Positions 3,546 to 27,598 of a stretch of DNA of 64,000 nt are shown here, one piece after another. Source of the DNA: Enterobacteria phage phiC600P9; sequence record MZ681930.1. The stretch is one strand, 5' to 3'. Made by a program: the position numbers and the translations under genes. The number at the start of each line of letters is the position of its first letter. The stretch's first letter is position 1. Under the pieces are notes generated by a model, which saw only the letters and a list, made by a program, of their open reading frames with translations, ran no database searches and was not told where the DNA came from.

Positions 3546-4549
3546 TAACTTACCAATTCAATCCAAGCCGGACGAAGTACATCTTGTACCATTTTAACTA
3601 ATTCCTTTTTAATCAAAGAAGGATTATCCGCTTGAGTTAAAGTAATACCTTCACGAGAAGTTTCTTCCAAAATATCTTGAACAGTTAGTCCCATCACCTT
3701 TCCAAAATCCTTTGGACCAATTTCGCCAATTTTAGAAATAACGTTATTTACTCGGTTCAGTGTAACGTAGCAAGCTAAAATTCCCAGCAATTTATTATCA
3801 GCTTCTGACAGCTCAACTTTAGCTTTAATAGGCTTATCAGACTTTTTCTTTTCGCTAAATTTAGAGTTCTTGCATTTAATAGCTACACGATTGCCATTAG
3901 GCATCCAAGAAGGATAACAAGGTTTCAATACATAACCTTCAGCGGTAAATACTTCGCCTTTTGCTTCGGCATTCCAAACGCATTTATTTGCATCAACTAA
4001 TCCAGCATGGTCTACTGTAAAATTATAATCCTGGACGACAGAATCTAAATCGTTTGGCAATTTAATAAGCTCTTCAAATTTACCGCGACCTAAAAGTGGA
4101 GCCATTTTAAATTTAAATGTATTACAGAATGATTCCATCATATAATCATCGACATAAGTCACATCACCACTTTCGGTAGTAACAATAATGTCAAATACAT
4201 AAAAATCTTTATCGCCATAATCGACATTCTTCTGAATGCCAGGTCCAGCGAATTCGCCAAAGACTTGATAAGATACAACCGCTGAGGTTTCCATAATATC
4301 TTGTACTGCTTTAATGGAATCAGCGTAATTCTTTAGAATAATTTCATACCCAAAGAAATCTTCAGCAGGAAGAATAGGACCAGTACGTTTAGCGCAAGTT
4401 ACTTTATCGCGCTCAATAATCAATGAGAAATTTGTGCCGTGAATCTTTTCACGAGCTACCCACTCCCCACCAGTCAATCCCAAGCTATAAAGTTTTTCAA
4501 TAAATTTAGAGTTGTAATGATTTTCAAGACTGCTATACTTTTTAAACAT
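3545..4549 (-). CDS. rnlB: RNA ligase 2 (Rnl2)
   Basis: 334 aa ORF, N-terminus [19 protein letters not shown] and KIHGTN adenylation motif; T4 Rnl2 length. Confidence 0.93.
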
Positions 4550-17977: not shown

Positions 17978-18033
17978 TTCCTCATGTTATGTCAGTAAGA
18001 CTATTATAACACAACATAAGGAACTTGTAAACT
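17978..18033 (-). promoter_or_regulatory. Early promoter (GTTTAC -35, TGnTATAAT extended -10) with 11-bp inverted repeat
   Basis: Minus strand GTTTACAAG-TTCCTTATGTT-gtgTTATAAT...AACATGAGGAA-cacaaaATG; the 3' arm covers the SD. Confidence 0.75.
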
Positions 18034-20089
18034 ACATTTTGAACTTTTTAGACATTCCGTTAATGTTAACCAAAGAAGCTAAGATTTGAGAAACTTCGTT
18101 TTCCTCTTCTTTTGATTCTTCTACAAGGAATTGATTAAATCCAGCCATTGGACGAACTTCACCAGTTTCCATTAAATGGTCTCCATCATATACTGATTCT
18201 TCTAATTGTTCAGAAGGAGGAACGATTGCACCTTCGATTAGATACTTGTTATAAGCAGTTTCTTTCATAAAGTACGTACTTACTTTATTAATCTTCAGTA
18301 AAATTCCACGCGGTAGAATAACTTCAGCTTCTGATGGAAATCCTGTTAAATGACCTGGAACGATAACTTTGATTCGCTCAGCTCCTTTAATTACCATACC
18401 CACTCTAGTTTCAGCATTTTCATTAGCGTATGTAGAATGACTACCCATATGCATCAAATCTTCTGCATCAACGGAACCTTCTCCTTCACCAGAAAATACT
18501 GCGCCGGAATCATCTAAAGCCATATAGTTTTTACCATGCTCGCCGAAGATATTTGGTTTAAGCGATGTAGATACGAAGTTCTTGAAATAGAACATTTTGT
18601 TTTCAATGTTATGACGCAAAGTTTTAAAGGTAACTTCTTGTCCACGGTAAAGTGTAGTTCCTGGAGGAAGAACTGAACCTTTAGCAAATGCAGAATCCAA
18701 CGTCTCGATGTGTTTAATAGCTCGTTCCATATATTCTTCGCGGGTAGAATCAGGTTTACCCAAAAGGAACGAGTTCATTTCAACATATGAATCTGCACAA
18801 TAATCTTCAATTACATCAGATTCAGCTTGAGTTAATCCTTTTGGAGTTACTTCGGTGCTTGCGTATTCATATGCCTGGGCAGCAGATTCATTAATCAATT
18901 TATAAATGCCATTCATTACAAATTGAATAATAGCTGTCTTTTCATCTGGCGTAGCTTTAGAACCTTTAACCAAATCATTGATAATTTTCTTAATAACATC
19001 AAAGCTATTAGAAATATTAATATCAGCAAGATCGCTTAAAATTTTATCAGTTTTATAATCAAAGAATTCTTTATTCTTTAAATATTCTTGAGAACCTTGA
19101 TATGTTATATCGCTCTGCAACTTGATGGATGGATCACGTAAACGTGCATGGGCTAATGCAATATGATTTCGGAAGTTTTCTAGTTCATAATCGCTAGATT
19201 TAAAACGAGAAGCACTTCTCATACCACCGATAGCTCCTTTGCTGAAGTTTGAACCAATCTGAATAACGCCAGAGTTCATTGGTCCTTCTGCTTTATATAC
19301 CGGAACTTTAGATTCAAACTCTTGATATTTCTTGGCAGCGAAGCTATCACCCTGAAGTGAAGCATCAACAGTAGAATATTGAGCTTGTGCTGCTAATCGA
19401 CGACTAATTTTAGTTTTCTGAATAACAGCTTGGTCCGTGCGCTTATCATTTTCTAAAGCAATAGAAGCAGCAACAGCGACAGCTTTAGGAACAGCATTAC
19501 CTGTTTTAACGTCTACATAAACATCACCAACCTTTGATTCAACTTTTGTGAATAACTCAGTTGAAATAGGAGGTACACCTGGAATGTCTTCTAAATTGGC
19601 ATTTTTACGGTAAACCATAATATATGCATACTTTTTATCATAGTCCCAGATTTCCTTTAAAAGAACATATCGACCTGCTCCTTTAGTACGTACTAAACGG
19701 TCAGCAATAACTTGCATTTGACGAGCAGCGCCATTTGTTTTACTCTTTAGTACACGGAATAAGCACGCGTCAATTTTATACTGTTTCATTGTTTGAAGAG
19801 CAGTATCAAAAACAGCATTAATGACGCCAATTGGATTTCCACCCAAGTTTCTAAGCTTAACCAGTGATAATTTCTCATTAACACCTATCATTACGATATG
19901 CATCATTTTATCGCCCGGCTTAACGTTTTTATTCGTATCACCGCCAGAGGTGTATGTACAAAATCTAAATCCAGGAAGCACGCTTTCTTCGCCGGCTTGA
20001 ATAGCAAAAATTTGTGGTATTTTATGCTTAGGATTTAAGTTAACAACCGGCGCCGAAGCGCCGTCAAATAATTCTGTAATAAGTTCCAT
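18032..20089 (-). CDS. Alt-family ADP-ribosyltransferase, second tandem paralogue
   Basis: 685 aa ORF; N-terminus MELITELFD and C-terminal ART motifs (YRGQ, FVSTSL, EAEVILPRG) shared with Alt; central region diverged. Confidence 0.85.
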   Translation of the reverse strand: MELITELFDGASAPVVNLNPKHKIPQIFAIQAGEESVLPGFRFCTYTSGGDTNKNVKPGDKMMHIVMIGVNEKLSLVKLRNLGGNPIGVINAVFDTALQTMKQYKIDACLFRVLKSKTNGAARQMQVIADRLVRTKGAGRYVLLKEIWDYDKKYAYIMVYRKNANLEDIPGVPPISTELFTKVESKVGDVYVDVKTGNAVPKAVAVAASIALENDKRTDQAVIQKTKISRRLAAQAQYSTVDASLQGDSFAAKKYQEFESKVPVYKAEGPMNSGVIQIGSNFSKGAIGGMRSASRFKSSDYELENFRNHIALAHARLRDPSIKLQSDITYQGSQEYLKNKEFFDYKTDKILSDLADINISNSFDVIKKIINDLVKGSKATPDEKTAIIQFVMNGIYKLINESAAQAYEYASTEVTPKGLTQAESDVIEDYCADSYVEMNSFLLGKPDSTREEYMERAIKHIETLDSAFAKGSVLPPGTTLYRGQEVTFKTLRHNIENKMFYFKNFVSTSLKPNIFGEHGKNYMALDDSGAVFSGEGEGSVDAEDLMHMGSHSTYANENAETRVGMVIKGAERIKVIVPGHLTGFPSEAEVILPRGILLKINKVSTYFMKETAYNKYLIEGAIVPPSEQLEESVYDGDHLMETGEVRPMAGFNQFLVEESKEEENEVSQILASLVNINGMSKKFKM

Positions 20090-20092
20090 GAT

Positions 20093-22144
20093 TTATCCTT
20101 GAACGAACTTGTAAGGCATGTTTGCAATATCTATGCAAGACGCAATAATTCCAAGAGATGATTCTACTTTCTGTTTAACATTTGATGAAACAAATGATGC
20201 AAAGTCAACTCTATCTTCTATATCACCTGTCATTGTAACCAATTCACCAGTTTCCATTAAATGGTCTCCGTCATAGATTACCGATTCGGTGAGCTCTTCC
20301 GTGGTCATAACTTCAGCTTGAATAAGCTTGTTGTTAGTTTTAACTGTTCCATCATTGTAAGATGCATCGGTTATTTTATTAACTTTGACCATTAATCCAC
20401 GTGGCAAAATGACTTCCATTTCATTTGAAGGCGCTAAACTTCCACCGGGTAAAACAACATTGACCTTATCAGCCCCAGTAATAACCCATCCAATTCCAAC
20501 TAAATTATCGCTAGAATTTACTAGTCCTTCATCAGTTTTATCAATAGAAACACTTAGACGCTTTTCGTCTGGTAAAACACCTATAGATGAATCAGTCATC
20601 CAAGTACCAAAAATATTTGGATATAATGATGTTGACACAAAGTTTCTAAAATAAAAAACTCGATTTTTTACCAATGCTTCATATATTGAAGGTAACATTC
20701 GCTGTGAACGATATAAAGTAATACCTTTTGGCAATCGATCGCCATTTTTAAAGGCTGAATCTAAATTATCGATGGCTTGTTCTATTTCGGGTGCTGTCAA
20801 AATACTTGTACGCTCATCTGGATTATATAATCCCAAAAGAGCATTATTCATGTCTACATATCCTGAACCCACATATTCACGAATTCCGCGTTTTTGAGCC
20901 GGTGTGTATTTAGATGAATCTTTATTTTCGACTATAGAATGCAATGACCATCCAACGGTAAGAGCATATCCACGTAATTCTCTTCGAATAATCTTTGTTT
21001 TTATTGCATTCCAAGAATTTTGCACTAACTCATTTGCAGCATCTTGATTTAAATGCGAATGCTTGTTAATATTTCTTTCTAACCAAGCACTTTTATATTT
21101 TTCTAAAGTATCATCGACTATAGAAGCAATAGTTTCTAAAGTTTTTATTGAAGTAATAGATTCTTTTCGTAATCTTTCTAAAGCTTTATTTTTTATTTCT
21201 GCATTAACATCAGATTCTTTATCTTCAGGAATTATAGAAGCTTCTCTGAATGCCATCCCAGCTGTAACACTATTAAGAGCATTCTCTAGTGCAAATCCTG
21301 AAGTAGAAATTACCGTTAATTCATTAGAATCAGAAATTAAAGGCGCGTCCGCTGGTTTATTTAATTCTGCCGCTGAAGCCTCAAATTTTTGAAACATCGG
21401 TGTTTCAAATCTAGAAGATTCCAATGACTGACTTTGTGCAATTGCTCTACGGGAAATTTTAACTTTAACGATTACAGCTTGGTCAGAACGTTTATCGTTT
21501 TCTTGCGCAATAGATGCTGCAATTGCCTCATTTTTAGTTACTTGAGCTCCAGTATCTTTATTGATATAAACATCACCGACCTTCGATTCAACTTTAGTAA
21601 AGAGCTCGGTACTAATTTCCGGAACTCCTGGAATGTCTTCTAGTGATACATTTTTGCGATGTATAAGAATATATGCATACTTTTTATCATAATCCCAGAG
21701 TTCCTTAAGAAGGACGTATCTGCCACCTGAACGACTACGGATAAGTCTATCAGCAATAACTTGAATTTGTCGAGCTTGACCAGCGGTTTTAGACTTAAGA
21801 ATACGAAGCATGCAGGCATCAATTTTATACTGGCGCATTGTTTGCATTGCAACAGTAAAAACTGAATTGATATAATTAATTGGGCTTGGACCAAGACCTT
21901 TCAATTTAGCAATTGAACCTTTAGCAGTTAATGTAAAAGGAACAATGTGCATCATTTTATCGCCCATCTTTAAATCACGATTAGTATCACCTCCAGATGT
22001 ATAGGTACATAAACGAAAGCCTGGTTGTTCAATTGCGTCATCAACATGAACTGAAAAAATTTGTGGTATTTTCTTCTTTGGATTTAAGTTTGTAATCGGA
22101 AGAGTAGTATCTTCGTCAAATAATTCTGTAATTAGTTCCATCAT
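20093..22144 (-). CDS. alt: ADP-ribosyltransferase Alt
   Basis: 683 aa ORF; matches T4 Alt along its length as recalled (MELITELFDEDTTLPITNL...; YRSQ, FVSTSL, EMEVILPRG). Confidence 0.9.
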   Translation of the reverse strand: MMELITELFDEDTTLPITNLNPKKKIPQIFSVHVDDAIEQPGFRLCTYTSGGDTNRDLKMGDKMMHIVPFTLTAKGSIAKLKGLGPSPINYINSVFTVAMQTMRQYKIDACMLRILKSKTAGQARQIQVIADRLIRSRSGGRYVLLKELWDYDKKYAYILIHRKNVSLEDIPGVPEISTELFTKVESKVGDVYINKDTGAQVTKNEAIAASIAQENDKRSDQAVIVKVKISRRAIAQSQSLESSRFETPMFQKFEASAAELNKPADAPLISDSNELTVISTSGFALENALNSVTAGMAFREASIIPEDKESDVNAEIKNKALERLRKESITSIKTLETIASIVDDTLEKYKSAWLERNINKHSHLNQDAANELVQNSWNAIKTKIIRRELRGYALTVGWSLHSIVENKDSSKYTPAQKRGIREYVGSGYVDMNNALLGLYNPDERTSILTAPEIEQAIDNLDSAFKNGDRLPKGITLYRSQRMLPSIYEALVKNRVFYFRNFVSTSLYPNIFGTWMTDSSIGVLPDEKRLSVSIDKTDEGLVNSSDNLVGIGWVITGADKVNVVLPGGSLAPSNEMEVILPRGLMVKVNKITDASYNDGTVKTNNKLIQAEVMTTEELTESVIYDGDHLMETGELVTMTGDIEDRVDFASFVSSNVKQKVESSLGIIASCIDIANMPYKFVQG

Positions 22145-22196: not shown

Positions 22197-22382
22197 ATAA
22201 TCTATAGGTAAGAGAGTACGATATATTTCAAACTTTGGACCTTTTTCATAAGCATCAAATGTTTCTGTAAATTTATTATAAGCGTATGCATCTACAAATT
22301 CGAGAATGACTTGTGATACAGAAGTAGAAACATCTCCACCTTCTTTTTGAGCCACGACAATTGTTTCTAAGTAAGCTTTCAT
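22194..22382 (-). CDS. Hypothetical protein (T4 alt.1 position)
   Basis: 62 aa ORF, overlapping stop/start with gene 30. Confidence 0.6.
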   Translation of the reverse strand: MKAYLETIVVAQKEGGDVSTSVSQVILEFVDAYAYNKFTETFDAYEKGPKFEIYRTLLPIDY

Positions 22383-23842
22383 AGACCAGTTACCTCATGA
22401 AAATCGCCAAATACATCTTCGAACGTATTAGCTTTAGTTTTATCTTCACGTAAACGAATCGCAATCGGAAGAAATAATTTAACGTAATCAGTGCGGCCAT
22501 CAGATTTTAACCAACCATTGCATTCGCACTCTAGAATTTTTCCAATATAATAATTTTGGTTTTCCATAATGCGAGTACGGTCAAGTTCATGCGATTTTAC
22601 ACCGGCTTTATCTTTTAAGCCTGAACCAGCATTTACCTTAATTTTTCCACACTCTGACTCAAGAATAAATCCACCTGCTTTAGTAGGGTCTTTACGGTGA
22701 GGATAAATTCCTACAATTTTTAAATCAACATCAATTACTTCTTTAAATTTATAGAGATTTTTTGAACGAGCATTTTCCCATAATCCATCGATATTTTTGA
22801 GAATAATACCTTCAAGACCTTGGTCAATATACTTTTTATAAATTACCTTAGCTTCATCTAGGTTATTTACTACCTGGTTTTCAATTAAAATTACTTTATC
22901 ATATCCTGATGTCATTTGTTCTAGTTTAGAAAAACGTACATCATATTTTAAACGAAACGCCGGAAGACCGTATATTTCTACCAACGGGACATAATCCCAG
23001 ACCTGAAACTTCATACATTGAGCTTCTTTTTCAGAAATGGTTCCTTTTAAGGATTTATTGGCGATTCCATTAGAAGTAGTACGAGATTCCGCTACTTCGG
23101 CGAATTCTTTAGCTTTACTAATTTCAGGATAAGCATCAAAAAGAAAATCTAGTCCTTCTGGTTCCTTTTTAACTTGCTCATGGTATACCAATTCGCCATC
23201 AATTAACACACCTTCTGGATGAATCTGGCGGGCTTCAGCAGTCATTTTGATTAATTCTTCCTTAAGAAGATCTAATCCTAGATATTCATTACCAGCTCGT
23301 GATAAAAGACGAACATCATCTAATTCATCACCTCGGACTTCAGCAAAACACCGAGCTCCATCTGCTTTTAACTGTGCAAAAGCTGGAAACTTGATATTCT
23401 TACTAATGCCTTTTTCATCATAAGAACTTGCCAGCATTTGAGGTTGTTCAGGAATTAAACCTGGCCAAACTTTGTTTGCAATAGATACTGAAGCACCGCA
23501 TTCAAGGTCTCGCATCATAACTCGACGCAAAACTTCAACATCATCCTTTTTACCATCGGTGATATATCCAGTCAATTCCTCAATTGCAGCATTTCCAGTC
23601 AATTTCCGAGTAGCTAACGTGAATTCAATGAAGTCAAGCATATCGGTAATGGTCAGCATTCCAAAACTCTGGGTAGCAATACCAGGTTTAGGCCATTTCT
23701 TGATATAATACTGCAACCCACGAGAATAAGTCAGACGATATACTCGTTTAAGCAATTCATTATCTTTATTCTTTTCAAGAATTGCTTGCTTCTGCTTAGT
23801 TGAACCAATAGATGCTATTTCATTCAGAATTTTAAGAATCAT
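22379..23842 (-). CDS. 30: ATP-dependent DNA ligase gp30
   Basis: 487 aa ORF; KxDG adenylation motif (LKADGARCF); T4 ligase length. Confidence 0.95.
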   Translation of the reverse strand: MILKILNEIASIGSTKQKQAILEKNKDNELLKRVYRLTYSRGLQYYIKKWPKPGIATQSFGMLTITDMLDFIEFTLATRKLTGNAAIEELTGYITDGKKDDVEVLRRVMMRDLECGASVSIANKVWPGLIPEQPQMLASSYDEKGISKNIKFPAFAQLKADGARCFAEVRGDELDDVRLLSRAGNEYLGLDLLKEELIKMTAEARQIHPEGVLIDGELVYHEQVKKEPEGLDFLFDAYPEISKAKEFAEVAESRTTSNGIANKSLKGTISEKEAQCMKFQVWDYVPLVEIYGLPAFRLKYDVRFSKLEQMTSGYDKVILIENQVVNNLDEAKVIYKKYIDQGLEGIILKNIDGLWENARSKNLYKFKEVIDVDLKIVGIYPHRKDPTKAGGFILESECGKIKVNAGSGLKDKAGVKSHELDRTRIMENQNYYIGKILECECNGWLKSDGRTDYVKLFLPIAIRLREDKTKANTFEDVFGDFHEVTGL

Positions 23843-24108
23843 TATTCATCCTTCAGAGTTTGGTTTACAGCTCTATTATAAATCAATTCATCATTAAGCT
23901 CAGGCAAAGACTTATGATATGTAGTTCTAACTTTATTTCCTTGCATCCAGTGCTTGACGTAAATGAAACCTTGCTCTACACATTTTTTAAAAATTCGTTC
24001 GTCTTTTTGAGCTCGGAATTCTGGATTGCATCTAAAAAATTGATTTACGTGACCGTAATCACGTGTAGTATTACCTTCATTTTCATAAATAGTGTGAACG
24101 ACAAACAT
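23842..24108 (-). CDS. Hypothetical protein (T4 30.1 position)
   Basis: 88 aa ORF, synteny. Confidence 0.6.
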   Translation of the reverse strand: MFVVHTIYENEGNTTRDYGHVNQFFRCNPEFRAQKDERIFKKCVEQGFIYVKHWMQGNKVRTTYHKSLPELNDELIYNRAVNQTLKDE

Positions 24109-24971
24109 TAGAATGCTCCTTGGAAAATATTATCACCACTAGTAAATCTATTAAAATACCCTGCATCGCCAGGCTTGGTATAACTCCACGTATGGAATGG
24201 ATTCATATGATACGGGTGTGTATAATATGGATTATATGGATGTGTATAATATGGATTATACGGATTAAATCCAGGAGTTCTCCAGGTAGTGTTCCAACGA
24301 AAAGAATCGTTTTTAACCATCTTCTCAATTACATCTTTTATAGCTTTTTCACTATCAAAACTTTCTTTATTTTCCTTTGGTGAAAAAAGCTTATTTTCTA
24401 CATCATTCCATGTATAAACTCGCTGCGCAGTTTTTGGAATATTGTCACGCTCTCCTCGAGCCATCCAATAAACCGGAACATTTAATATTTCACTCGCGTG
24501 GTCACAGTGGTGAGCGAGATCGTCAATATAACAAATTACGTTATATTTCTCTTTTGCCTTTTTAAACAACTCTTCTTTTGAAGAATCATGGCCACACATC
24601 ATTACTTCTGAGAAGGCACCAGGAAAAAGAGCATTCAAATTAAATTGACGATTCAACAGAGCGTCAATAGAATCACCCAATGCTGTAACAGCTACAAAAT
24701 TATAATCTTCTTTTAATTTGTTAATTACACACAGGGCATCTTTATACGGAGACAAGTAACGAATAAAATCTGAACGATTGTATTTTTCAATTAACTTGAC
24801 GCCAAGTTCTTCATCACAATTAAAGAGTTTACCTGGAGAAATAAATTTCTCATCTTGGATCATTTTTAAAATATGTTCTAACGGAAGATTATATTTCTGA
24901 GCAAAATAAGGAAGGCCTGATTGCCAGCTTAAACATACTCCATCAATATCAGTTAAAATAGTAGGCTTCAT
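24108..24971 (-). CDS. HAD-superfamily hydrolase-like protein with Pro/Tyr-rich repeat tail (T4 30.2 position)
   Basis: 287 aa ORF; N-terminal DxDGV motif (ILTDIDGV); C-terminal NPYNPYYTHPYNPYYTHPY repeats. Confidence 0.7.
   Translation of the reverse strand: MKPTILTDIDGVCLSWQSGLPYFAQKYNLPLEHILKMIQDEKFISPGKLFNCDEELGVKLIEKYNRSDFIRYLSPYKDALCVINKLKEDYNFVAVTALGDSIDALLNRQFNLNALFPGAFSEVMMCGHDSSKEELFKKAKEKYNVICYIDDLAHHCDHASEILNVPVYWMARGERDNIPKTAQRVYTWNDVENKLFSPKENKESFDSEKAIKDVIEKMVKNDSFRWNTTWRTPGFNPYNPYYTHPYNPYYTHPYHMNPFHTWSYTKPGDAGYFNRFTSGDNIFQGAF
24215..24262. repeat. Tandem 24-nt repeat x2 inside 30.2
   Basis: ggtgtgtataatatggattatatg / gatgtgtataatatggattatacg, two mismatches; encodes the repeated PYYTHPYN segment on the minus strand. 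Confidence 0.85.
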
Positions 24972-25432
24972 AGAGAGTCTCTTAATAGGTTTAACACATC
25001 AATAAATTCAGCTTCGGTTAGTATTGTATCATCTTTTGTTAGACCACTAGCCATGCTGTGCTTCAAAACTTTTCCTTTCGAGGCTTGTAATGCATCGCGA
25101 AAACCCTTGTTTTGGAACGCTGCTTCAAAATATGCATTTGTGTATAATTCTTTCCACGCCGGGGAATATCTTGAAAACGGAACTCCAAGCCAGAAGAGGG
25201 TCCCACGGTCCTGAGCTCTAGCATAAGACCTTCCAGCTTGTTGAGCGGCAAGCCCAGATAACCCAAATATACGACGTTGTTGTTCAACGTTTTTCACCTT
25301 GCATCCTTGGAGGAATCCTTCAAGACCTCCAAATTGAATACCATCCATAACGAAAGGCCATTGGGCGAAATTACTTAATGCACATGATGGCCACCTAAAA
25401 TTGCTTCTAATCTCTAACTCAGACATTTTCAA
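24968..25432 (-). CDS. NADAR (YbiA-like, DUF1768) family protein (T4 30.3 position)
   Basis: 154 aa ORF; LSNFAQWPFVMDGIQF matches the conserved SNFAxWP...DG block of E. coli YbiA / NADAR proteins. Confidence 0.7.
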   Translation of the reverse strand: MKMSELEIRSNFRWPSCALSNFAQWPFVMDGIQFGGLEGFLQGCKVKNVEQQRRIFGLSGLAAQQAGRSYARAQDRGTLFWLGVPFSRYSPAWKELYTNAYFEAAFQNKGFRDALQASKGKVLKHSMASGLTKDDTILTEAEFIDVLNLLRDSL

Positions 25433-25625
25433 TGCTTATAATTTCAACATCAGCCCAATGACCATAGCAAGGAAGACGAAATTCAACTGGCCAGTTAGGG
25501 TCCTTTTCTAATATAATAGACTCAACTCGTGGTTCTTCATGTTCATCAGTATATGGATTTTTATCTGTTACTTTATATGTGACCTTAATGTACTGAATTC
25601 CAAAAATCTTATTAATTATATTCAT
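25419..25625 (-). CDS. Hypothetical protein
   Basis: 68 aa ORF in operon. Confidence 0.5.
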   Translation of the reverse strand: MNIINKIFGIQYIKVTYKVTDKNPYTDEHEEPRVESIILEKDPNWPVEFRLPCYGHWADVEIISIENV

Positions 25626-25819
25626 ACTAATTCCTTTAATCCGTAGATAGGAGATAATTCATCACCCATACGAAGGTCTTCATTTCCATCTACCCAGGAA
25701 ACAATATAAGCCTCTTTTATTTGAATACCACTCCATTTAAATGGAGGTAGAACCTTAGAAATTAATCCAGGTATACCAACTCCCTTTAATTCAACAGTTT
25801 GACCTAAAAAGAATTTCAT
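25622..25819 (-). CDS. Hypothetical protein
   Basis: 65 aa ORF with overlapping stop/start to neighbours. Confidence 0.5.
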   Translation of the reverse strand: MKFFLGQTVELKGVGIPGLISKVLPPFKWSGIQIKEAYIVSWVDGNEDLRMGDELSPIYGLKELV

Positions 25820-26106
25820 TAGAACCTCATCTGAAAACCGTGCGATTTAACATTACCGCCACCAATATCAGAGATATTAATTTCGCGCGCAATTGAAGGG
25901 TCAATGTCAATTTCACGATTGAGTTTAGTGATAGCTAAAGTATCGCGCCCATTTACAGTACGGAACTCTAAAGGGCAGACTACATTAACATAGTTTTTAA
26001 TCGATTCACTAGTAGGCTGCAAATGAGCAGGAAGGTCTTTAGGCGCCTTAGAGAAAACAACTTCACAGAAATTTTTGCGGGTATCAAAATAAGTAGTCAT
26101 AAACAT
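25819..26106 (-). CDS. Hypothetical protein
   Basis: 95 aa ORF. Confidence 0.55.
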   Translation of the reverse strand: MFMTTYFDTRKNFCEVVFSKAPKDLPAHLQPTSESIKNYVNVVCPLEFRTVNGRDTLAITKLNREIDIDPSIAREINISDIGGGNVKSHGFQMRF

Positions 26107-26146
26107 AATATTTTCCTCAATAGGGGCCGAAGCCCCTCATTTTATT

Positions 26147-26512
26147 TTAAATATCAAATTCGTTAAGAACTACATCAAAGATCGCTTCAAGATGCTCAGG
26201 TTTAGCTCTGTTACTCAGAATATGACGAATCCAAGTTTTAACTAAGAGTTTACGATTAGCACCATTCCAGCAAGGATGAGTCCCTAAATCGCGTTGACGG
26301 AAATCATCATCTAATGCGATTTTAAAAGAAGAACCTTCTTTCGTGATTGAAACCGTGATGCCATTTTCAAATCGCATATAAACGTAGTTAGGAGTCATAT
26401 ACTGTTCAATTTCGCATACTGATCCATTTTGATGTTTCCAAAGGCAGATAGTATCAATAGAACCTGCAATACCGTTAGAAACATATTTACGTTCAAAGTT
26501 AATGTAGTTCAT
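26147..26512 (-). CDS. Hypothetical protein
   Basis: 121 aa ORF preceded by SD GGAGAA and an early promoter. Confidence 0.6.
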   Translation of the reverse strand: MNYINFERKYVSNGIAGSIDTICLWKHQNGSVCEIEQYMTPNYVYMRFENGITVSITKEGSSFKIALDDDFRQRDLGTHPCWNGANRKLLVKTWIRHILSNRAKPEHLEAIFDVVLNEFDI

Positions 26513-26538
26513 TTTTATTCTCCGAGATGTTTAATTGC

Positions 26539-26579
26539 GGTACAGGTATATAATATCATATCCTGTACCAAAGTAAACA
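26539..26579 (-). promoter_or_regulatory. Early promoter with 8-bp inverted repeat (GGTACAGG/CCTGTACC) around the -10
   Basis: Minus strand GTTTACTTT-GGTACAGG-atatgaTATTATata-CCTGTACC. Confidence 0.65.
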
Positions 26580-26580
26580 A

Positions 26581-26913
26581 TTATTTTACTACTTTCCAGT
26601 GCTGCATGTCAAGTTTACCAACTTTTTTCATCTTCTCAATTAAGCGTTCGGCACGTTGGCGAGCTGTAACATAATACCATTCACCCAACTCATTTTGTTC
26701 AATTTTTCCAACGATTACCGTATTCAGTTCATAAATCCAACCAGTAAAGAAATTATGAACTTGGATTGTAAAGGTGAAATCTGTTCCCATACCTTCTGTT
26801 GTTTCTACTTCAATAATATCACCTTCAACTGCCATTAAGAACCACATAGTTTCATCATATTTACCATTGAAGCATTTAGTTTTAACTGTGGCGTTCAGAT
26901 TAATCGTTTTCAT
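26581..26913 (-). CDS. Hypothetical protein
   Basis: 110 aa ORF with SD AAGGAG. Confidence 0.6.
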   Translation of the reverse strand: MKTINLNATVKTKCFNGKYDETMWFLMAVEGDIIEVETTEGMGTDFTFTIQVHNFFTGWIYELNTVIVGKIEQNELGEWYYVTARQRAERLIEKMKKVGKLDMQHWKVVK

Positions 26914-26920
26914 TTTATTC

Positions 26921-26971
26921 TCCTTTGTTTGTGTAAGATAATACTATCACAAAGGAACCATACTGTAAACA
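26921..26971 (-). promoter_or_regulatory. Early promoter with inverted repeat whose 3' arm overlaps the SD
   Basis: Minus strand GTTTACAGTATGG-TTCCTTTGTG-atagtattatcttacac-AAACAAAGGAG-aataaaATG. Confidence 0.65.
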
Positions 26972-26989
26972 ACTTTGTGCAATCTTTGG

Positions 26990-27018
26990 AAAATAAAAAA
27001 GGACTCCCGAAGGAGTCC
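26990..27018 (-). terminator. Hairpin terminator downstream of the 30.9-like gene
   Basis: GGACTCC-cgaa-GGAGTCC; on the minus strand it is followed by TTTTTTATTTT. Confidence 0.7.
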
Positions 27019-27023
27019 TTAAC

Positions 27024-27200
27024 TTATGCTTTCTGCTTACCAAAACGAGAAGCATCATCTCGAAGAACCGCACGTGCTCGGCGCATGATCTTCTCAACAG
27101 TTTGATTGATACGAGAGTTCGACCCACGCTTGTAACCAGCGCGTTTAGAATCACCAACTTTCTTTTCAACTGCTTTCTTTGCTTTAGCTTGTTTTGCCAT
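27024..27200 (-). CDS. Small basic protein (T4 30.9 position)
   Basis: ORF track 27024..27242; likely start MAKQAKAKKAVEKK at 27200 (58 aa, Lys/Arg-rich). Confidence 0.55.
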   Translation of the reverse strand: MAKQAKAKKAVEKKVGDSKRAGYKRGSNSRINQTVEKIMRRARAVLRDDASRFGKQKA

Positions 27201-27242
27201 TATAAATTCTCTTTTAAATGAAAATGCAGGACTTATTGGCAT

Positions 27243-27598
27243 TGCCTGCGCAAGCCCTCACGGGGAACATAGGTTTTTGAATATTTAACGACCAGGATAA
27301 CCATAAACCCGTCATCATACCTTATAGCTCTTATCTGTTGCACACCGTTAGCTTAAAGGTTCCGGGTTCGATTTCTCGAGGATAAGATATATACTGATGG
27401 ATATATAGGCCTTGAGGCGTACTCCCGATTGGCCATCACCTCGGGGTAGCATGCACTTGCCGCTATAAGAATAACATTCAAGAGGTACACCGTAAAACTG
27501 CCGGGGTCTTAAAACTATAATGATTCGCAAATCATTAATCAGACAGTTCGACGGCTCCTCGATTTTAGCTCACACTAAGGCAGTGAATCTCCAATAAA
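27243..27598 (-). other. GC-elevated non-coding island between the 30.9-like gene and rIII
   Basis: About 355 bp with no convincing ORF; several local stems (CCCGA...TCGGG; TAATGATT-cgca-AATCATTA). Confidence 0.4.

Follow-up and report, generated by a model that had tools for sequence, protein, structure and literature searches.

The window analysed here is the whole of a 64,000-nucleotide stretch of DNA from Enterobacteria phage phiC600P9 (sequence record MZ681930.1), and the subject of this analysis is the minus-strand gene in it that corresponds to gene 30.3 of phage T4. This gene is very probably adfN, which would encode an orphan, antitoxin-like NADAR enzyme that counters the DarTG1 defence of the host, and the adjacent gene 30.2 would encode an independent HAD phosphatase. 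The region from 23800 to 25700 is Tequatrovirus (T4-like) DNA that is 100% identical to phiC600P9 and matches 659 T4-like phage records, 495 of which cover at least 80% of the query. Genes throughout the region lie on the minus strand and are transcribed in the order 30.4, 30.3, 30.2, 30.1, 30 (ligase), alt.1, alt, as in T4; thus, the NADAR and HAD genes picked out in an initial annotation of this DNA are T4 genes 30.3 and 30.2. The window protein is equal in length to T4 gp30.3 (AdfN) and identical to it at 150 of 152 positions, it has a NADAR fold, and its active-site residues and C-terminal helix are intact.

The initial annotation proposed that a phage NADAR could erase ADP-ribose from phage DNA and protect it against DarT-type defence. 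That central idea is correct and, given the published experiments on T4 gp30.3/AdfN, was already established, having been demonstrated for a protein that differs from the window protein at two residues. To what T4 AdfN had already shown, the window adds one more allele of adfN, nearly identical to that of T4. The new points are corrections to the annotation, an association between the HAD gene and the DNA ligase gene, and a lead concerning gene 30.4.

Identity and start codon of adfN

The only substitutions relative to T4 gp30.3 are I104F and I125M. A total of 104 gp30.3 homologues were collected, and the 89 that are full length were aligned to give the family set used for residue counts. Position 125 is I in 41 of these sequences and M in 39.

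Where does the protein begin? The initial annotation described a 154-aa open reading frame (ORF) with a YbiA/NADAR motif. The motif is real, with LSNFAQWPFVMDGIQF forming residues 17-32 of a 152-aa protein, but the start codon at TTG 25432 is wrong. This TTG was a mechanical pick of the program that listed ORFs; the T4 annotation starts two codons later, at ATG 25426, where the start codon overlaps the 30.4 stop and the numbering of E36 and K43 agrees with the literature. The phiC600P9 GenBank record MT630408 uses yet another start, the internal Met29, giving a 126-aa "hypothetical protein" (4169-4549 in that record, equivalent to 24968-25348 in the window). The Met29 start drops P13 to F25, a family-invariant segment that holds the SNF motif. 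The same type of miscall is found in several 126-aa database clusters. With an internal-Met call and a hypothetical label in phiC600P9-type records, pipelines that annotate anti-defence genes will miss adfN.

T4 gene 30.3 contains an internal, out-of-frame ORF named 30.3' (75 aa), the frame of which corresponds to 25063-25290 (-) in the window. Its ATG is ACG here, with a TTG one codon on. The frame is open in eight of nine relatives, down to 84-86% gp30.3 identity, and has an internal stop in one. Because the ATG is replaced and one relative has an internal stop, 30.3' is not treated as part of the feature.

gp30.3 is a divergent NADAR protein

The Pfam model Phage_30_3 (PF08010) matches gp30.3 at 9e-70 over profile positions 1-138 of 138, and it matches all 89 relatives. 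When searched against PDB sequences, the gp30.3 family profile finds E. coli YbiA (2b3w) at E 0.006, and alignment of the profile with the YbiA sequence using hhalign gives a probability of 93.9% (E 1.6e-7). Single-sequence searches of PDB sequences with gp30.3 and with gp30.2 returned chance-level matches only. Structure prediction, which the initial annotation had proposed as a check, upholds the NADAR call: the AlphaFold2 model made from the 89-sequence alignment is confident, with a predicted local distance difference test (pLDDT) score of 93.1 and a predicted template modelling (pTM) score of 0.88, and it has a helical core flanked by small sheets, as expected of a NADAR fold. Structural comparison gave values of 12.0 for the Phytophthora NADAR with ADP-ribose (8bau), 11.4 for E. 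coli YbiA (2b3w), and 9.5 for the Geobacter lovleyi DarG1-type NADAR (8bat).

Several gp30.3 homologues carry the JGI label "YbiA (DUF1768 family)". The PHROG 652 profile has 296 positions, of which the window protein covers only 126-272, and some proteins of the gp30.3 family are ~200 aa long, suggesting an N-terminal extension.

Residue equivalences between gp30.3 and YbiA were taken from hhalign and HMMER alignments. The catalytic residues, the loss of which would have spoken against a NADAR, are kept: all 89 relatives have S18, N19, F20, E36, G37, F38, Q40, and H123, and 87 have K43. E36 and K43 align to YbiA E48 and K55, the catalytic Glu and the phosphate-binding Lys, which are E43 and K50 in PnNADAR. 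Towards the other end of the protein, K122 aligns to YbiA V124, which places H123 opposite YbiA E125. According to the literature, this last-strand position separates three groups: YbiA-family proteins have Glu there, DarT-linked proteins of the BC4488 family have Asp, and the gp30.3 proteins of phages have His (PMC11125620; PMC11543638). The window ORF reaches residue 152, as in T4, such that the C-terminal helix is intact. This helix is needed for full AdfN activity, and a frameshift that removes it leaves the RB69 allele inactive (PMC11825919). NADARs of the gp30.3 type with the invariant His are common in environmental phage contigs (IMG/VR), including jumbo-sized ones.

AdfN as an enzyme that counters DarTG1

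What is known of the function of this protein comes from T4. As cited in PMC11825919, PMC11125620, and PMC11543638, de Souza and Aravind had earlier classed the phage gp30.3 group as a NADAR subfamily on bioinformatic grounds. Purified T4 gp30.3 strips ADP-ribose from guanine, not thymine, in DNA (PMC11125620). The resistance of T-even phages to DarTG1 was mapped to gene 30.3, which was renamed adfN (Johannesman et al., Nat Commun 2025, PMC11825919). In that study, deletion of adfN made T4 sensitive to DarTG1, ectopic AdfN-T4 rescued RB69, and AdfN-T4 was weakened by E36A, by K43A, and by an RB69-like truncation; AdfN-T4 removed ADP-ribose from DarT1-modified DNA and did not bind DarT1 (PMC11825919). 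A transposon screen of T4 (the HIDEN-SEQ preprint, bioRxiv 10.1101/2025.11.20.689424) found 30.3 to be dispensable on K-12 and insertions in it to be lost on a DarTG1 host; Data S6 of the preprint lists a log2 fold change (log2FC) of -7.25 for 30.3 insertions on DarTG1, with an adjusted p of 0.

Taken together, these data suggest the following mechanism. In a DarTG1 host, the DarT1 toxin would ADP-ribosylate guanines of the phage DNA and block replication. AdfN would hydrolyse the N-glycosidic bond of guanine-ADP-ribose, such that the DNA would be restored and the phage could replicate. Catalysis would proceed at the NADAR site, involving the SNF motif, Glu36, Lys43, and His123, the last in place of the last-strand Glu or Asp. 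The window allele is predicted to be active and would be expected to behave like that of T4.

Could gp30.3 instead be a housekeeping enzyme of the YbiA type, an N-glycosidase that acts on intermediates of the riboflavin pathway and not on DNA? This is extremely unlikely. The last-strand Glu that defines YbiA is His in all 89 gp30.3 relatives, the T4 protein works on DNA that carries ADP-ribose and its phenotype is specific to DarTG1, and the published phylogeny puts the T4 group nearest to DarG1-type NADARs, not YbiA (PMC11825919).

Several points weigh against the identification of the window gene as adfN with the role described above. First, a direct scan with gp30.3 itself at E<=1 yields neither the Pfam NADAR model PF08719 nor any NCBIfam or PADLOC model. 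The profile comparison with NADAR/DUF1768 that had been proposed for this ORF was therefore negative in the direct PF08719 scan and positive for the family profile, for hhalign, and for relatives: 13 of the 89 reach PF08719 when scanned individually, with 1.5e-7 as the best value. Since these relatives match PF08719 and the family profile finds YbiA, gp30.3 is homologous to NADAR proteins despite the miss, which reflects divergence and not an absence of homology. Second, T4 gp30.3 gives E. coli no rescue from DarT1 (PMC11125620). AdfN-T4 gives non-T-even phages only weak help and fails to neutralise DarT1 where cells are not infected, and it is fully effective only in a T-even infection, independent of cytosine modification; hence, a phage factor has been proposed (PMC11825919). 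The simple picture in which the enzyme alone suffices is incomplete. Third, the function ascribed to the window adfN is transferred from T4, at 99% identity, and is to that extent a prediction.

Gene neighbourhoods: Alt, the HAD gene, and DNA ligase

According to the initial annotation, the NADAR and HAD genes lie immediately downstream of DNA ligase. This is so only in plus-strand coordinates; transcription of both runs along the minus strand towards the ligase gene, which places them upstream of it. The annotation was right to place them near ADP-ribosyltransferases, with two full-length Alt paralogues present in the window (Table 1). The paralogues are in tandem, are 685 and 683 aa long, and both match PF03496. 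In T4, a single alt gene is accompanied by the truncated remnants alt.-1 and alt.-2, and related loci have one or two copies.

For a wider view, 80 viral loci with a gp30.3 homologue were fetched, 61 of which are more distant (~37-45% identity) and include contigs of 250-424 kb; co-occurrence was counted at 72 viral loci in which a gp30.2 homologue is flanked by 3 kb or more in each direction. None of the 61 distant gp30.3 loci has an Alt, ligase, or HAD gene within 8 kb, and clustering of the ORFs within 3.5 kb of these 61 genes gave no neighbour family in more than 7 loci. At least 7 T4-like genomes have the NADAR gene and the HAD-ligase-alt block ~55 kb apart (for example, loci L049/L098, L072/L103, and L077/L107).

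These data bear on the suggestion, also made in the initial annotation, that the NADAR balances the phage's own Alt activity. More broadly, the enzyme might be directed not at a host defence but at the phage's own ADP-ribosylation, reversing or tuning what Alt, ModA, or ModB do. The two Alt paralogues are ~3-7 kb away and are transcribed in the same direction, and gp30.3, ligase, and alt are neighbours in many T4-like loci. Alt modifies arginine on proteins. On DNA substrates, NADARs removed guanine-linked, not thymidine-linked, ADP-ribose (PMC11125620; PMC11543638). Moreover, gene 30.3 is non-essential on plain K-12 and essential only with DarTG1, and alt insertions are neutral on DarTG1 in the preprint's data for that host, with a log2FC of -0.01 (bioRxiv 10.1101/2025.11.20.689424). 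With Alt missing from the surroundings of the 61 distant genes, and with the NADAR gene standing so far from the HAD-ligase-alt block in some T4-like genomes, a role in balancing Alt is very unlikely, and action against DarTG1 is the preferred reading.

Does the HAD protein act together with AdfN? The two might form a two-enzyme module, with the HAD protein processing the released ADP-ribose or a phosphorylated product, or being itself the T-even factor that AdfN is reported to need. Genes 30.3 and 30.2 overlap (ATGA) and are co-transcribed, and they are adjacent in Tequatrovirus and in several other T4-like loci. However, gene 30.2 is dispensable on DarTG1: the preprint's DarTG1 data include 71 transposon sites in 30.2 with no depletion (log2FC -0.12, p 0.61), and 30.2 is not among the two genes that these data mark as significant genome-wide (bioRxiv 10.1101/2025.11.20.689424). 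Co-occurrence points the same way. At the 72 gp30.2 loci, DNA ligase is adjacent in 70, an Alt gene is found in 55, and gp30.3 is found in 36 and absent from the other 36; in turn, the 61 distant gp30.3 loci have no HAD gene. The pairing implied by the initial annotation does not survive these comparisons, a two-enzyme module is highly improbable, and the HAD and NADAR proteins were rejected as a functional pair on the transposon data and the co-occurrence counts. Thus, the adjacency of the two genes in the window is T-even gene order and not a conserved module.

The neighbour that the HAD gene does keep is ligase. The HAD-ligase adjacency holds even where ligase identity falls to ~35-40%, and three loci keep it with the gene order reversed. 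Such steady adjacency hints at chemistry on nucleotides or on phosphates at DNA ends. As a point against reading function into it, the adjacency could be inherited T4 synteny, which is an equally simple explanation.

Gene 30.2 encodes a predicted HAD phosphatase

The window gp30.2 is 90% identical to T4 gp30.2, with the differences mostly in the tail. The HAD motif I noted in the 287-aa ORF (ILTDIDGV) spans residues 5-12, and the HAD-like hydrolase call is borne out by four HAD motifs, a HAD-type model, and relatives that match PF00702. In 83 aligned relatives, the motifs DxD, S/T, K, and DD are represented by D8, D10, and K132, which are invariant, and by T96, D150, and D151, which are kept in at least 90%. 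The DxD motif argues for a phosphatase and not a dehalogenase. The AlphaFold model has a Rossmannoid core and a cap domain; the core has a pLDDT above 94 as far as residue ~190, an additional helix spans 202-220, and the protein is disordered from about residue 251. gp30.2 itself has no Pfam or NCBIfam match (E<=1 for NCBIfam), and among the 83 relatives PF00702 is matched by 18 and NT5C by 11. Among PDB sequences, the gp30.2 family profile matches a 5'(3')-deoxyribonucleotidase best, with a borderline E of 0.097.

From these similarities, gp30.2 is predicted to be a Mg-dependent HAD phosphomonoesterase that is closest to the NT5C-type 5'(3')-deoxyribonucleotidases. Counting against that placement, the matches that suggest the NT5C subfamily are weak, at E 1e-4 to 0.1. 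A nucleotide is a possible substrate, although this is offered tentatively and the balance is tilted against it; a DNA-end phosphate is unlikely. A literature search for "gp30.2" found no paper.

The tail of gp30.2 (window 24108-24330) has many Tyr, Pro, Asn, and His residues and is predicted to be disordered; many relatives, ~200 aa in length, have no such tail. The window protein has one copy more of the repeat NPYYTHPY than T4 gp30.2, in which the alignment shows a 10-residue gap.

Gene 30.4 as a possible helper of AdfN

What might the factor be that restricts AdfN to T-even infections? The DarTG1 sheet of the HIDEN-SEQ data contains exactly two significant T4 genes (bioRxiv 10.1101/2025.11.20.689424). 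In the data of that sheet, the two are 30.3 and 30.4, the latter with a log2FC of -1.79 and an adjusted p of 0.014; 30.5 is also down on DarTG1 (-3.0), a non-significant value that derives from a jackpot site (bioRxiv 10.1101/2025.11.20.689424). Gene 30.4 was left undiscussed by the authors of the screen (bioRxiv 10.1101/2025.11.20.689424). It encodes a 68-aa protein that falls in no known family and lies directly upstream of adfN, and its stop overlaps the adfN ATG by 8 nt: ATGTCTGA. Homologues of gp30.4 occur only beside gp30.3 genes that are at least 84% identical (T-even type), and the 8-nt overlap is always kept; an iterated hidden Markov model (HMM) search of all ORFs of the 80 loci found no gp30.4 relatives beyond the T-even group.

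One reading is that 30.4 encodes the T-even-specific factor that AdfN needs for full activity, and is not a bystander of polarity. In its favour, the NADARs that need no such factor come from phages outside the T-even gp30.3 group. Against it, polarity or translational coupling explains the data more simply, and the effect of 30.4 insertions is partial. Gene 30.4 and adfN are likely to be translationally coupled. A promoter and terminator scan of 23800-27400 showed no minus-strand promoter-like site between 30.6 and 30.3, although the scan was uninformative overall, with 17 sites compared with 12.5 +/- 3.5 in shuffled sequences and hence no enrichment. Given the overlap of 30.4 with the adfN start and the lack of a promoter-like site in that interval, polarity or lost coupling is the likelier cause of the 30.4 signal, and a helper function for gp30.4 is improbable. 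Nevertheless, 30.4 is a cheap candidate for the factor that limits AdfN to T-even infections.

Features of the region

Table 1. Coordinates of adfN, its marked codons, and the surrounding genes in the window
Feature	Position	Strand	Description
adfN (T4 gene 30.3)	24968..25426	(-)	152-aa NADAR-fold protein; predicted DNA ADP-ribosylglycohydrolase and anti-DarTG1 factor
SNF motif codons S18-N19-F20	25367..25375	(-)	89/89 invariant; align to YbiA S30-N31-F32
Codons E36 to K43 (EGFLQGCK)	25298..25321	(-)	presumed catalytic Glu and phosphate-binding Lys; align to YbiA E48, K55
Codon H123	25058..25060	(-)	replaces last-strand Glu/Asp; marks phage gp30.3 subfamily; 89/89
C-terminal helix, residues 138-151	24974..25015	(-)	in AlphaFold model; present in 89/89 relatives
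Gene 30.2	24108..24971	(-)	287-aa predicted HAD-superfamily phosphatase; C1 cap, NT5C-like, disordered C-terminal tail
HAD motif I codons D8-I9-D10	24942..24950	(-)	DxD, predicted nucleophile and general acid/base; both Asp invariant in 83 sequences
24-bp tandem repeat in gp30.2 tail	24210..24265	(-)	2.3 copies encoding NPYYTHPY; Tandem Repeats Finder (TRF) score 98
Gene 30.4	25419..25625	(-)	68-aa ORF directly upstream of adfN; PHROG 2042
Gene 30.1 (DUF3045)	23842..24108	(-)	PF11243 at 5e-63; context
Gene 30, ATP-dependent DNA ligase	22379..23842	(-)	PF01068; context
Two Alt-type ADP-ribosyltransferase paralogues	18032-20089 and 20093-22144	(-)	PF03496 at 1.3e-19 and 7.4e-34; context

Comparison with known systems

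How does the window locus compare with systems that have been described? The closest is AdfN-T4 (PF08010). Both loci have the gene order 30.4-30.3-30.2-30.1-30, the 8-nt overlap with 30.4, and the ATGA overlap with 30.2, and both proteins have E36, K43, H123, and the C-terminal helix. The differences are the conservative I104F and I125M, the second full-length alt of the phiC600P9-like phage, and the loss of the 30.3' ATG.

The DarG1 antitoxins (BC4488 family; Geobacter lovleyi 8BAT and E. coli C7) differ from gp30.3 in several respects. First, the window gp30.3 has no DarT partner gene; its neighbours are 30.4 (PHROG 2042) and the HAD gene 30.2, not a DarT1 toxin, and a PADLOC scan of both gp30.3 and gp30.2 gave no match. 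Second, gp30.3 is 152 aa long and lacks an N-terminal extension, compared with 219 aa in 8bat. Third, the last-strand residue is His in gp30.3 and Asp in DarG1. Fourth, T4 gp30.3 is unable to neutralise DarT1 in uninfected E. coli. E. coli YbiA and the Phytophthora NADAR (PF08719) differ as well: identity is ~20%, Glu125 is replaced by His123 in gp30.3, and PF08719 does not match gp30.3 directly. The role of YbiA differs too, as it is an N-glycosidase for riboflavin intermediates encoded in a LexA-controlled operon. For gp30.2, the systems to compare are the NT5C-type 5'(3')-deoxyribonucleotidases and the 3'-phosphatase domain of T4 Pnkp (HAD), from which it differs by the helix at 202-220 and the disordered repeat tail.

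AdfN-Bas32 and AdfN-Bas60, from T5-like and Vequintavirinae phages, are likewise orphan NADARs of phages, directed against DarTG1 and guanine-specific. Unlike AdfN-T4, they need no phage factor and neutralise DarT1 even when cells are uninfected; they fall in other NADAR clades and were acquired independently. Within T4 itself, AdfA (gp61.2) and AdfM (the Tk.4 macrodomain) are part of the same layered counter-defence against DNA ADP-ribosylation as AdfN. Their means differ: AdfA is a non-enzymatic DarT binder, whereas AdfM is a macrodomain that deals with the thymidine ADP-ribose made by DarTG2, on which AdfN is inactive.

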